A DNA stretch of 64,000 nucleotides from Chrysomallon squamiferum (taxonomy: Eukaryota; Animalia; Mollusca): NCBI GenBank assembly GCA_012295275.1, contig CM022676.1:3100001-3164000 (forward strand), given 5' to 3'. Below are positions 2,353-42,700 of this stretch, one piece after another. Numbering within the stretch: position 1 is the stretch's first letter; each line of letters opens with the position of its first letter. A model generated the notes under the pieces. It worked only from the letters and a program-made list of their open reading frames with translations. It had not been told where the DNA came from and did not search any database. A program made the translations under genes and the position numbers.

Positions 2353-5300
2353 ATGATACTTCTTATTTTTATTTTCATATGCACCAGAATTATCCAAGTT
2401 ATTACAGGTCAGTTTTATATAGCAATTTTGAAAGTTATTTTATTTATTTACATATGTATCTATCTATTTATTTACTTATTTATTATTTATTATTTATTTA
2501 GTTGCTTATTTAGTTAATTAGTTATTTGTTTCTTTCCTTGCTTCTTTGATTTAGATCGGTTTCTTTTACTTTTGTTTTAACAATTTATTTATTTACTTAC
2601 TTATTTATTTTACTTATTTATTTATTTATTTATTTATTTATTTATTTATTTATTTACTTATTTATTTATATTTTTTATCATTATTACTTTAAAATATGTG
2701 TCAGGAAAATTATAATAACAGTCATTATTTTATTGGACTACAGCTTATTTATCAATGTTGCAGGAGAATACACATTGGAACAATCAGAAAAATATGTACT
2801 AATGGGATCATCGATCACTCTAACGTGTAATACAGGAACAAATGTAAGTAAGATCGGCTGGACACGCCAGAACTCTCCTTTCATTTTAACACAAGGGCCA
2901 GGAAACCAATGTCGTGAAACTAAAAACGATTATCAGTTGACATGTTCAAGATCGACTTTTACGCTAACCATTAACGATATTCAGATTGAAGAAAATGGAG
3001 TAAAATGGAAATGCTTCGATGTCGACAGTGGAAGTGAAAGCAATACCGTGATTACTGCCGTGCACTGTAAGATACGTGCACACAAAACAAATTACATATA
3101 ACAGTCACGTTATCCTTTTCGTGTGGTTGTTGTTGTTGTTGTTGTCTATAAACTTGTGAGTTTATTGTACTTAACATATCTGTTTAAATGTATTTCATGT
3201 CTGTTCTTCTAAATCATCATATGCAAAGAAACAAAGAAGCCTCAGTTAAATTGTTAAACCAATTGAATATGTCGCTTATTCTCCAAAATGTAAACAATTT
3301 CTTTTCTTTTTAAAATCATTTTCATTCTCCATTAAATTTAAACAATTTCTTTTCTTTTTTAAATCATTTTCATTTTTCATTATATTTAATTCATTTCATT
3401 ATTATTGCAGTGGTACTCCGATTTACGAGTGCCCCAACTTACTTGTTTTTCGAGTTACCAGCAGTCGTCCCGTCGATCTGTTGCTTTGAGTTGCGAGCCA
3501 AAATATCAGTTACGGACAAGCTTCAGATGTGCCGCCACTAGTTGACGCAATGAATAATATAACATCCGGTCAGCATTCTGCATTTCACTCATTTACTTCA
3601 AGTGGGTACCTCGCCGCGGAAGCATTTCTGTTGTGATGCGCTTGAGCTTTTGTGTAGTATTTTGCCAACTTTATTTTTTCTGACCATGGAGCCTAAGAAA
3701 GTGAGTGCAAAGGACAGTGCTGAGAAGAAGAAGCGGATGCTGTCCACTCAAATAAAAAATGAAATCATTGAAAAACATGAGCGAGGTGTGTGTAGTCGAA
3801 TTGGCTAGGCAGTACGAGCGTAGTACTTCTATGATATGTTCCTAAAGCTGAAGGAGTCGATAAATGCTGTAACTCCAGCGAAAGGCATTAATATAATTTG
3901 TCTGGTCTCCAAGATAAATACACTTTACAAAACCAATTTATTTTTTTTTTTTTTTTTTTTTTCGTTTTTATACAATATCTCTCATTTACAAAATACATTT
4001 TTACATATATATTTAAAAACAGGATATAAAAAAAAAAAAAAAAAAAAAAAAAAAAAAAAAAGAAAGAAAGAAAGAAAAATGGGTTTGTTTTTAGGGGGCT
4101 GGAAAGGATTAATAGTACTTCAATTAATTTCAGTAGGGAAAATGTATTTGATATACGAGCTCGTCACGGAACGAATTAAACTCGTAAGTCAAGGTACCAT
4201 TGTATTATTATAATTACTACTATTATTGTTATTGTTATTATTGTTTTATTATTGTTATTATTTTATTATTAGTAGTATTTTATTATCATTATTACTATTA
4301 TTATTTTGTGTATGATATTTTTGTTGTTGCTGTTGACACAAGTTGATTTGAGTCATTTGGCGATGACGAAGTAATTTTTTAAAGACAAATTTCAAAGAAA
4401 CATTTATATTCGTTTTAGGTGTTATAATGTCATAAATGTTTTGTGAATATCCTCTCTCTCTCTCTCTCTCTCTCTCTCTCTCTCTCTCTCTCTCTCTCTC
4501 TCTCTCTCTCTCTCTCTCTCTCTCTCTCTCTCTCTCTCTCTCTCTCTCTCTCTCTCTCTCTCTCTCTCTCTCTCTCTCTCTCTCTCTCTCTCTCTCTGTA
4601 TATATATTTTTTTTTCTGTGTGTGTACTACAGGAATTAGGCATTATCAGAAACAATTTCAGTCCAAAAGTTCATTAGTTATAGTGTTATCTCCGAAGGAA
4701 CCAACATCCATGTTTTTAATGTCATAGTTTGCTCTCTCTGTTGATCGTTGCCCAGGTGGATACCCAGATATTCCCTGGACCATTCATCACTTTCAGTTTA
4801 GTGATTATACATACCACCTCTAAAATACACAGATAGATAGATAGATAGATAGATAGATAGATAGATAGATAGATAGATAGATAGATAGATAGATAGATAG
4901 ATAGATAAGTAGGTAGGCAGCTACATAGATAGATAACAAATATCATATGTATAGACACATACATGAATATACAAAGAAACATACACGTACGCACACACAC
5001 ACACACACACACACACACGCCGACGCAAGCACAGACACATACTACACATAAGGGGGGTTGTATGTGTATGTATTCAGATTAAGCACAAATTTCTTTTCTT
5101 TTTCAACAGATTTAATCATCACAGGTGAACCTAAAGCCATCTTCAGTTTAAATTATACATTATTTTGTCTTCGACCAAAAACAGCAGAGGATCGTCATGT
5201 TTCTATATTTAAGAGACCCAGTTTCATTTGTGTTGTCCCTCCTATCTGTCAGTACCGTAAATGGGGCAATCTTAGGAAGTGCGGTTGTGTCTACACTAAT

Positions 5301-39728: not shown

Positions 39729-42700
39729 ATGTTACTTGTGATTTTCATTTTCATTGGCAGTAGAACCATTCAAGTTGCAACAGGTCACTTTTATATTCTC
39801 ATTTGAATTTTTTTTATTATTATTTTTATTTATTTACCTACTTACTTATTTGTTTATTTAGTTAACTGTATATTTGTTTCTTTATTTATTTTGTTGTTTT
39901 TTATTTTAATTTTTGTTAGTTTATTATTATTTATTATTTAATTAATTTTCTTTTATATATATAAACATATTCTAATTATTTCCTTAAAATATGTTTCATA
40001 TCTATGTTTATAGGAAAACTATCATAACAGTTGTTAATTTACTGGACTACAGCTTATGTATGTAATGTTTCAGGAGAATACACATTGAAACAGTCAGCAA
40101 AATATGTATTAAAGGGATCATCGATCACTCTTACCTGTAATACAGGAACAAATGTAAGTAAGATTGGCTGGACACGCCAGAACTCTCCTTTCATTTTAAC
40201 ACAAGGGCCAGGAAACCAATGTCGTGAAACTAAAAACGATTAGCAGTTGACATGTTCAAGATCGACTTTTACACTAACCATCAACGATATTCAGATTGAC
40301 GAAAATGGAGTAAAATGGAAATGCTTCGATGTTGACAGTGGAAGTGAAAGCAATACCGTGATTACCGCCGTGCACTGTAATAATTGCATATAACAGTCAC
40401 GTTGTTGGTTTAGTGTGGTTGTTGTTGTTGTGTATCAACTTGTGGGGTTAATATATCTATTTAAATGTATTTCATGTCTATTCTTCTAAATCGTAACATG
40501 AAAAAACAACAAAAAAGCTTCAGTTAAATTGTTAAATCAGTTCAACATCTGGTGTATTGTCCGAAGTTTAAAACTTGTTTTATTCTCGTTTTAAATTATT
40601 TGTTATTTTTAATTGTATTTAATTATTAGTAGTAGTATTAGTAGTATTATTAGTATTATTATTATTATTATTATTATTATTATTATATTTTTTATTATTA
40701 TTACAATTATCATTATTATTATTATCATGTTTTTGTTGTTGTTGTTACATGTTTGTATGATTCGTACATGTGTTTGTCGATGAAAAGCGTTTTCTAAACA
40801 CATGTTTATTTCTGTTTTAATGATTAAAATATATATATACACATTATTCTTTTCTTTTTCAACAGATTTAATCCTGACAGGTGAACCTAAAGCGATCTTT
40901 AGTTTAAATTATAAATTATTTTGTCTTCAACCGAAACCAAAAGTGGAAATTCTTCCTATTTCTTTTTTGAAGAAATCCTTTCTGCTGTGTACTGTCGGTC
41001 TGTACTGTCAACAATATGACAAATACACGAACTGCAGCTGTGTGGAGAGTAATCAGACTCACATATTGTATGAAATGACAATATTTAATGTCACGATGAG
41101 TGACGAGGGAAAATTGAGATGCAATTATATTGAATCATCCAGCAACTTGTTTTATGTAGAAGTCCACTGTAAGTTTTTCGTGTTAATAGTTTTGATAAAA
41201 TAAATGCATTATTTTTTACTTTATTTTTTCATTTTTAAAATTATATTTTATACTAATAAAGATTTCCTTCCAGTAATGTCAGAAAATCGCCATTCCACCA
41301 TATTATATATTTTTTTATTCCACTCTTACTGAAACCATTATTTTTTAAATCTTTAGTAATGTTTTCTTTAAAGTTAACTCGATAATTAAAATATTTAATT
41401 CATTTATTAGCTAATAAACTAAAAAAAATATGATATATAAATTTTCCTTTCGAAAGAGATACATTTTTATTTTTATTTGGTCAGTGATTATAATTCTGAC
41501 TGTATTAAATTAGGTTGACTGTAGTTTTTACTATATATCTACTATTATTACTATTAAACCTATTACTACTAGTAGTGGAGAAATTTAATCAGTTGTAATC
41601 CAAGTACTGATGTTACTATTAGTTGTAATAGAACTAGTAGTAGTTGTATCATTACTAGTAACAGTAGTAACAGTAATACACATACTCGCATACCCACTGC
41701 CCATGAAGTGTTCGCAGCAGTCGGTTTTTTTTGTTTTTGTTTTTTTGTTTCACTGGATGGTCCTTAACCTTACGACCAACACCACATCACCATAAATAAA
41801 ATACATTATATCTGTTTTACTGATTATAGTGTTACAAATGTTTCATGATCTCTCTCTCTCTCTCTCTCTCTCTCTCTCTCTCTCTCTCTCTCTCTCTCTC
41901 TCTCTCTCTCTCTCTCTCTCTCTCTCTCTCTCTCTCTCTCTCTCTGCATTTATATAACACATTTCTTTCTTTAAACACAAGGTTACCTAAAACTCGTGGT
42001 TCCACGCAGTATAGTCATGAATGAGACTTACACATTCCAGTGCTTTGTATCACCAATCGAAAAAATCGTGTCTCCTATCAGGTTTGTGAGAAATAACATC
42101 ACCATGTGCGTAGTTGATCCATCATGCCAACAGGTGCAGGCGATCAAGGGTTATTCCTGTAACTGTGCATCTGCCAGTGGAGTCACAAGAGTTTATAATT
42201 TAACAATACAAAACATCAACATTAGACGCGTATCTTACTGGACATGCGAACATGGTTCTGATATGAGCAAAGCTGTCAAAGTATTAAGTTTTAGTAAGTT
42301 TATAGAAGCTTTTTTTGTTGTTTGGGAGGGTTTTGGTTGTTTTGTTTTTGTTCTGTTTTATTTGTGTGGTTTTTTTTTGTCTTTTTTAGTATTATTACTC
42401 ATATTTTTTATATTATTAATGTTATTGCTGTTGTATTTGTTGTTGTCGTTGTTATTATTATTGTTCTAGTTGATGAATGTGATGATTATGTTTCCTTTGA
42501 AAAACAAATTCTGTTTTCTTTGACGATTCTTTTTTTCTGTTAACACTTCTAAGTATTTTTAACAATTTATGAATTAAAGGAAATCACATATGAAATAAGT
42601 TGCAACTGATAGTCTTAATGAACACAAGAAAGAAAATTGAATTAATATACATGAGTATCACCATATTCTGCAAGCACATTACAACAACAAGAACAATAAT

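Follow-up and report, generated by a model that had tools for sequence, protein, structure and literature searches.

Diversification of a single immunoglobulin domain in a tandem array of predicted receptor genes of the scaly-foot snail

Introduction

The closest described counterparts of the genes considered here are immunoglobulin (Ig) domain proteins in which selection falls on one binding surface. In primates, the binding face of CEACAM N-domains is under selection and these domains bind bacterial adhesins (PMC8860441), and in Hydractinia the binding face of Alr2 domain 1 is likewise under selection (PMC8282982). Molluscs tell microbes, symbionts and self apart without any receptor rearrangement, and how they do so is an open question for which there are few molecular candidates. 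Here we describe a tandem array of five predicted receptor genes from Chrysomallon squamiferum, the scaly-foot snail, found in a window of 64,000 nt (assembly GCA_012295275.1, contig CM022676.1, positions 3,100,001 to 3,164,000; coordinates below are counted from the first letter of this window). Diversification of a single domain, the second Ig domain (Ig2), in this apparently undescribed gastropod receptor family is well supported. By analogy with known systems, our best explanation is that the array could be a tandem receptor repertoire, in which the Ig2 front face would bind varied foreign (microbial or parasite) ligands and a common tail would signal via phosphotyrosine; we give this explanation an even chance of being correct.

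Variation between the copies is concentrated in Ig2

The first 46 kb of the window comprise five tandem units of ~9 kb apiece, and every unit is a complete gene with its own signal-peptide (SP), transmembrane (TM) and terminal tail exons. The exon order in each gene is 5' non-coding, SP, Ig1, Ig2, Ig3, three TSP1, TM and tail, with domain exons that are all phase-1. The five units are complete paralogous genes and not alleles, and their products are predicted to be single-pass cell-surface receptors that are near-identical outside Ig2. Two other readings of the array were considered and rejected: Dscam-like alternative exons, as each unit is a complete gene, and duplicated haplotypes, as the units differ by ~14% in introns and by a repeat insertion. 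The Ig2 exons, and the main variable stretch of one of them, are as follows.

5110..5415, forward strand: Ig2 exon of copy 1, lineage A (copies 1, 3 and 4), 306 nt
13442..13750, forward strand: Ig2 exon of copy 2, lineage B (copies 2 and 5), 309 nt
23513..23818, forward strand: Ig2 exon of copy 3, lineage A, 306 nt
32945..33250, forward strand: Ig2 exon of copy 4, lineage A, 306 nt; the domain in the confident model, a V-type Ig with six Cys and Phe at the strand-C Trp position
40866..41168, forward strand: Ig2 exon of copy 5, lineage B, 303 nt
33007..33114 (approximate), forward strand: main variable stretch of copy 4, from the BC loop to the C'-D linker (alignment columns 21-57)

A preliminary description made from the sequence had claimed these exon lengths, changing by whole codons only, and both claims are borne out by exons that are bounded by AG and GT and are phase-1. 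It had also listed TGEPKAIFSL, all six Cys, N-x-T and MSDE as fixed, and these are invariant in all five Ig2 exons. The variable central segments and the patches after the last Cys that it quoted were recovered, save that an invariant Leu after the first Cys had been dropped from the quotation. A comparison of copies 1 and 3 shows 32 differences in 101 residues, and residues 23-56 hold 23 of these differences, as had been stated, if the split codon is taken as residue 1, or 22 if counting starts from the first whole codon.

This variation is clustered beyond chance, with a mean pairwise difference of 0.68 in the best 34-column window against 0.43 overall, a value that none of 20,000 shuffles of the columns attained. 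The copies have a mean amino-acid distance of 0.425 for Ig2 and of 0.038-0.163 for the seven other mature-protein exons (copy 3 being excluded from Ig3 and tail because of frameshifts); Ig1 differs by 5.6% between copies and Ig2 by 42.5%. Ig2 is the only exon that varies to such a degree.

Variable sites lie on one face of a predicted V-type fold

An AlphaFold model of Ig2 based on a 13-sequence alignment (pLDDT 88.4) has a V-type Ig fold. This was the second model; the first, from five sequences, was poor (pLDDT 57.8, no Foldseek match at E<=0.001) and was discarded. Top VIA matches of the retained model are all V domains (Z 12.2-14.2, rmsd 1.6-2.2 A), the best having a Z of 14.2 and an rmsd of 1.7 A over 97 residues, and Foldseek indicates a resemblance to antibody, T-cell receptor and CD8 V domains. 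The B-strand and F-strand cysteines (C19 and C86) are invariant, the strand-C Trp of V-type Ig domains is replaced by Phe or Ile, and the best Pfam V-set score of 14.9 bits lies below the cut-off of 26.

Mean pairwise difference is 0.48-0.72 in the BC, C, CC', C', C'-D linker, F and FG elements and 0.08-0.39 in A, A', B, D, DE, E, EF and G. The C'-D linker contains one single bridge and no clear C'' strand, and is the least confident part of the model (pLDDT ~74-76). Positions assigned as outward by strand alternation differ by 0.75 on the GFCC' sheet and by 0.32 on ABED (p=0.009), where these assignments derive from sequence register rather than coordinates and the positions were chosen after the alignment had been inspected. 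The variable sites are presumably exposed at the surface. Modelling had been proposed in the preliminary description as a check, and the variable sites do cluster on one face of the V-type model instead of being scattered. The regions it had named were BC, C-C'-C'' and FG: variation does map to BC, C, C' and FG, the C'' strand is not clear, and what varies is a sheet face with its loops, extending beyond tips of the kind seen in complementarity-determining regions. The variable face of Ig2 would presumably bind ligand.

Codon-model evidence for positive selection on Ig2

Codon models were purpose-written GY94 fits. For Ig2, the comparison of M1a with M2a gave a doubled log-likelihood difference (2dL) of 16.6 (p=2.5e-4), with an omega2 of 2.69 on 42% of sites, and the M7/M8 and M8a/M8 comparisons gave 2dL values of 18.6 and 16.7. 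The site-wise tests that had been suggested earlier, run on the five paralogues, thus detect positive selection in this exon. The signal persists when 14 columns next to indels are removed (2dL 11.3) and when two other trees are used (2dL 18.4), and 0 of 37 null simulations reached the observed 2dL (maximum 6.35). The other exons gave no positive-selection signal (2dL 0.7). When Ig2 was divided by structural element, omega was 1.59 for front and 0.40 for back elements, with the front exceeding 1 at p=0.023. A post-hoc test of the core against the rest (2dL 72.8) is circular and is not relied on. We infer that the Ig2 face diverged under positive selection.

Probable gene conversion and the history of the exons

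Divergence at fourfold-degenerate sites is 0.256 in Ig2 (95% interval 0.14-0.37) versus 0.060 in the other exons (0.037-0.085), and this fourfold higher silent divergence means that Ig2 looks older than the neighbouring exons. Silent divergence is alike in the variable and framework parts of Ig2 (0.24 versus 0.26), and therefore local mutation rate does not explain the front-face excess. The Ig1, TSP1 and TM exons form a mosaic, in which 12 of the 21 sites that are informative disagree with the tree when 2.8 are expected (p=0.001, in a test whose model does not include CpG homoplasy). Ig2 is tree-like, with 9 of 38 informative sites in conflict and 9.9 expected, and an adjacent-site test for mosaicism within it was negative (p=0.88). 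The mosaic of Ig1, TSP1 and TM exons is as expected from gene conversion, which has likely acted on them.

Two lineages of Ig2 are apparent, A (copies 1, 3 and 4) and B (copies 2 and 5), and the split extends to the flanking introns and to a high-copy insertion in the Ig1-Ig2 intron, an intron of 1.9-2.0 kb in lineage A versus 0.5-0.7 kb in lineage B. The insertion lies at ~31390-32070 in copy 4 and at corresponding places within the same intron in copies 1 and 3, and is present in lineage A only; Pfam gave no meaningful match for it, and we take it to resemble a remnant of a Tigger/CENP-B-type transposon. The first 20 codons of Ig2 (5110-5170 and equivalents) hold 0 of the 21 sites that separate lineages A and B, which suggests that the 5' end of this exon has undergone conversion or is strongly constrained.

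The simplest reading is one of exchange among the constant exons, with Ig2 kept out by selection. Under the mechanism that we propose, the Ig2 face would diverge under positive selection as it binds varied foreign ligands and gene conversion would maintain the similarity of the remaining receptor parts; selection would act against any conversion tract overwriting Ig2, so that each copy retains its own specificity. Ig1, Ig3 and TSP1 would act as a shared frame and the shared tyrosine tail would recruit SH2 proteins. The five copies would then likely serve as sensors that differ in what they bind but share one signalling frame.

These patterns could also have arisen without adaptation if Ig2 is simply older, either because it was imported from old paralogues or because its divergence prevents conversion, and constraint on its front face is relaxed. 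The excess of silent divergence and a whole-exon omega of 0.93 fit such a history, as do two copies that look broken and the run of the A/B split into flanking introns. It is, however, difficult to reconcile with three likelihood tests that reject omega <=1 with controls included, with indels of whole codons only, and with the retention of six Cys in five of five copies, and we consider it very unlikely.

Gene models and domains outside Ig2

Open frames of 658-659 aa are present in copies 1, 2 and 4. The five genes are as follows.

1510..9808, forward strand: gene copy 1, 658 aa, from splice sites and frame; 5' untranslated exon end 1534 (start approximate); SP 2353-2407; Ig1 2764-3066; Ig2 5110-5415; Ig3 5825-6136; TSP1 6927-7118, 7992-8183, 8379-8579; TM 8779-8872; tail 9487-9808
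11380..18734, forward strand: gene copy 2, 659 aa; 5' untranslated exon end 11405; SP 12031-12085; Ig1 12407-12709; Ig2 13442-13750; Ig3 14550-14861; TSP1 15441-15632, 16542-16733, 17210-17410; TM 17796-17889; tail 18413-18734
20280..28181, forward strand: gene copy 3, frame broken as assembled; SP 20968-21022; Ig1 21327-21629; Ig2 23513-23818; Ig3 24314-24626; TSP1 25301-25492, 26231-26422, 26847-27047; TM 27263-27356; tail 27858-28181
29730..37565, forward strand: gene copy 4, 658 aa, with Pfam V-set and TSP_1 matches and RNA cover of SP, Ig1 and Ig2; SP 30344-30398; Ig1 30725-31027; Ig2 32945-33250; Ig3 33757-34068; TSP1 34952-35143, 35888-36079, 36249-36449; TM 36728-36821; tail 37244-37565
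39040..46204, forward strand: gene copy 5, TAG in frame within Ig1, with splice joints in RNA; SP 39729-39783; Ig1 40074-40376; Ig2 40866-41168; Ig3 41982-42293; TSP1 42852-43043, 43738-43929, 44451-44651; TM 45271-45364; tail 45883-46204

In the assembly, copy 3 carries a one-base insertion within a run of T in Ig3 and a two-base insertion within an AG repeat in the tail, with a first stop at aa 294, and may be a pseudogene or reflect a sequencing error. The in-frame TAG of copy 5 Ig1, at 40241-40243, may likewise be genuine or an error. The signal-peptide exon of copy 1 (2353-2407) is far more diverged than those of copies 2-5. The window is AT-rich and has dense microsatellites. Its GC content is 29.4%; that of the scaly-foot snail genome is given as 34.5% (PMC7736800).

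Ig1 passes the Pfam V-set cut-off (28.6 bits) and two TSP1 exons pass Pfam TSP_1; the third TSP1 exon has no Pfam match but is 49% identical to the second. Ig2 and Ig3 have six cysteines in common and neither passes any Pfam cut-off. The TM helix was assigned from hydrophobic sequence. No fibrinogen match was found in the exons scanned with Pfam. The tail exon is represented by that of copy 4.

37244..37565, forward strand: cytoplasmic tail exon of copy 4, 106 aa, EAYIEI plus DDDDYHETFLYQL

The tails hold one YIEI half-site plus an acidic DDDDY. The tail of the guidance receptor UNC-5 is defined by ZU5 and death domains; the 106-aa tail of the array gave no Pfam match near a cut-off, so neither of these UNC-5 features is present. 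The tail also bears on whether the genes could encode gamete-recognition receptors diversifying under sexual selection. Gastropod fertilization offers a precedent in abalone lysin and VERL, where rapidly evolving surface proteins under positive selection occur with concerted evolution of repeats, but a tyrosine-bearing tail and several co-existing paralogues are not known to be features of systems of that type, and we attach hardly any credence to this reading.

Transcripts, further Ig2 variants and alternative functions

RNA evidence consists of contigs from two runs of one study and supports splicing up to Ig2. The SP-Ig1 and Ig1-Ig2 joints occur at the predicted boundaries in both runs and are GT..AG, save for one Ig1-Ig2 joint that stops 2 nt before the donor and has two intervening letters; loose contig ends extend into the 5' exon. 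One contig (depth 2.2) joins SP directly to Ig2 in frame (39783-40866), skipping Ig1, and such a joint would place the variable domain at the N-terminus.

40154..40972, forward strand: stretch skipped by a different in-frame GT..AG joint, which removes the TAG of copy 5; one further RNA contig, depth 2.2, with 0 differences in 75 nt and 1 in 170 nt versus copy 5

Contigs from other runs point to variants beyond those in the window. All five Ig2 contigs that were compared (four spans) fit no window copy by difference count versus copy 4, three further Ig2-region contigs that overlap introns having been left out of the comparison, and one loose contig end carries Ig2-like letters that are absent from the window. 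There must therefore be additional Ig2 types, either allelic or paralogous; contigs cannot tell these apart, and their summed depth does not give copy number. One contig of 267 nt, which has 33 differences across the same span, is present in runs of two studies, and the copy 5 Ig2 recurs at 169/170 nt in one RNA run. Runs of two other organisms (B and C) gave no exon cover at 80% likeness, a result from contigs that does not prove absence.

The main rival to a repertoire for foreign ligands is a code for self-recognition or cell identity, serving neural wiring or histocompatibility as do Dscam, clustered protocadherins and Alr, in which receptors would form an antiparallel homophilic dimer through Ig1-Ig3 and central Ig2-Ig2 pairing. 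Such a code explains why the middle domain alone varies, as only Ig2 must differ. Paralogues that join different variable parts to constant parts that hardly differ are reminiscent of clustered protocadherins, and an Ig-TSP1 ectodomain is reminiscent of UNC-5. The predicted Ig2 homodimer (score 0.05, mark 0.32) came from a run in which the input alignment was unused and counts neither way. Alr2 is homophilic and selected on the C/C' face (PMC8282982). Conversely, the 267-nt contig and the recurrence of the copy 5 Ig2 hint weakly at Ig2 types that several samples have in common and that are not private, which speaks against allorecognition and not against a neural code, and the single contig that skips Ig1 would break Ig1-Ig3 pairing. 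We regard it as possible but, on present evidence, improbable.

Ordinary adhesion receptors that are used by a microbe or parasite would give the same selection signal if the Ig2 face diversifies to avoid or choose adhesins, possibly those of symbionts. This is the reading given to CEACAM1/5/6 in PMC8860441, and TSP1-repeat proteins have been implicated in symbiont colonization of sea anemones (PMC5446238). Several divergent adjacent paralogues, together with the variants in other runs, nevertheless accord better with a repertoire than with a single gene undergoing serial replacement, and we judge escape from, or choice of, adhesins to be unlikely.

Relatives of the family and neighbouring Ig genes

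No close relative was found in the searches made with Ig2 and Ig1 profiles (0 of 3109 and 0 of 251 candidates, respectively) or in JGI metagenomes (199 pattern matches, none confirmed). HMMER over 1.84 billion representatives gave eight matches, three of which cover the Ig2 domain; the other five were set aside as containing a generic E-F motif only. A broader profile retained 3 of 7990 candidates. The named domain-covering relatives are all gastropod (Patella, Haliotis and Gigantopelta), with other architectures and with names that come from automatic annotation. A 'contactin-2-like' protein of Gigantopelta aegis (P0020) has all six Cys and is 40-44% identical to Ig3 and 28-32% to Ig2; a Patella vulgata adhesion GPCR (P0006) has all six Cys of the Cys-rich Ig domain, a Haliotis cracherodii 'hemicentin-2-like' protein (P0008) has five in the aligned stretch, and a Patella caerulea protein (P0021) has a related Cys-rich Ig domain. 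In contrast to the array, the other domains of these proteins are Ig, Fn3 or GPCR, and none has a TSP1 match.

The Cys-rich Ig domain (C..C-x5-C..C-x-C..W-x-C) recurs N-terminally in gastropod receptors of varied architecture (P0006, P0007, P0008, P0020 and P0021). It passed no Pfam model of its own and may be a mollusc-specific V-type subfamily. No Ig-Ig-Ig-TSP1x3-TM family in molluscs was found in the literature at title and abstract level, a weak test that was aimed in part at cephalopods and excluded supplements, where snail gene-family tables could list these genes.

Further Ig sequences lie downstream of the array. A gene on the opposite strand, convergent with the array (50228-49926 and ~49150-48803, reverse strand), has one six-Cys Ig exon, 40% identical to the Gigantopelta protein P0020, and one C2/I-type Ig exon. 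An inverted pair of V-type Ig exons (54855-55205, forward; 63829-63479, reverse) sits within a larger inverted repeat (~54815-58414 and 61283-63869); the pair differs at 35 of 117 residues, with a pairwise omega of 0.69 that is not different from 1. A 440-nt head-to-tail duplication at 55684-56564, with 99% identity, is either recent or an assembly artefact.

Weighing the repertoire explanation

Several observations weigh against a repertoire of receptors for foreign ligands. Two of the five copies (3 and 5) are broken as assembled, and a canonical ITAM (immunoreceptor tyrosine-based activation motif, Yxx[L/I]x6-12Yxx[L/I]) or ITIM (the inhibitory counterpart, [S/I/V/L]xYxx[L/I/V]) was matched in 0 of 5 tails. 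The M0 omega of whole Ig2 is below 1, a separate fit of the core segment gives an omega of 1.71 that does not significantly exceed 1 (2dL 3.2), and the codon models were fitted to only five sequences and include neither multi-nucleotide changes nor CpG effects; the contrast between the two sheets is tempered by the way in which outward positions were called. When the other exons are fitted to a single tree, the best one is that of Ig2, and homogenization is accordingly incomplete, and intron divergence (~0.12-0.17, noisy) is between the two exon classes. The immune role is argued from analogy, and a variable domain that lies behind a conserved N-terminal domain, unlike that of CEACAM or Alr, suits an adhesion code at least as well.

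A bolder version of our interpretation, which we offer tentatively and would not ourselves expect to hold in full, is that of an undescribed gastropod repertoire of more than five copies. Its specificity would reside on a middle six-Cys V-type domain that selection shields from conversion, the rest would be homogenized and exon skipping could place Ig2 at the protein tip; its role would be the discrimination of symbionts from pathogens in a vent snail, or a protocadherin-like Ig self code. A family whose members are almost the same except on a single predicted face of a single domain is a clean natural experiment, and swaps of Ig2 would test specificity directly.

Comparison with known systems

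CEACAMs are not known to carry TSP1 repeats or a six-Cys Ig domain. The likeness of the array to CEACAM1/3/5/6 lies in paralogous Ig receptors that exchange sequence by gene conversion and in positive selection concentrated where one V-type domain binds proteins, as these are described in PMC8860441. The CEACAM variable domain is, however, N-terminal and itself shuffled by conversion (PMC8860441), whereas that of the array comes second and bears no mark of conversion, the constant exons being mosaic. Alr1 and Alr2 are similar in belonging to an invertebrate gene cluster for single-pass Ig proteins, in which each domain has its own exon and pseudogenes lie nearby, and in having V-type folds that are often missed by Pfam and diversifying selection on the C/C' face (PMC8282982, 10.1101/2022.03.04.482883). 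As portrayed in these sources, Alr domain 1 is N-terminal and without the B-F cysteines, while array Ig2 has the B-F pair plus four more Cys; the Alr stalk is I-set and Fn3-like, while the array has three TSP1 exons in place of the Fn3-like membrane-proximal domain; several Alr tails carry ITAMs or ITIMs, while those of the array have no canonical one; and Alr diversity is allelic and binding homophilic, whereas the diversity seen in the array is between paralogues.

Arthropod Dscam shares with the array inner Ig domains (Ig2 and Ig3) that vary behind a constant first domain, a C'-D loop that is a candidate ligand epitope, and paralogous variable exons without gene conversion, but these are mutually exclusive exons of one gene (PMC3236188), whereas the array has a complete gene per variable exon. 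Among molluscs, the GRC/PTC2 genes of Biomphalaria are similar in that they are gastropod clusters of highly divergent single-pass membrane genes, thought to recognize parasites; according to the same account (PMC7494358), PTC2 has no known domains, between-haplotype diversity, and synonymous divergence that exceeds non-synonymous divergence, whereas the array has Ig and TSP1 domains and divergence confined to one exon. The oyster receptor CgIgR is also a molluscan single-pass Ig receptor with a tyrosine-based tail, which binds bacteria and signals through Syk, but it has five Ig domains and a classical ITAM, and no tandem family with one variable domain is described in the part of that source drawn on here (PMC6994640). 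Biomphalaria FREPs are reported to join IgSF to a fibrinogen domain (PMC11999971), for which the array exons have no match.

The array works like CEACAM and Alr in its selected C/C' face and gene cluster, and like Dscam in its inner variable domain, and fails a defining feature of each. It would be a sharp example of selection keeping one exon out of concerted evolution, the reverse of the CEACAM pattern.

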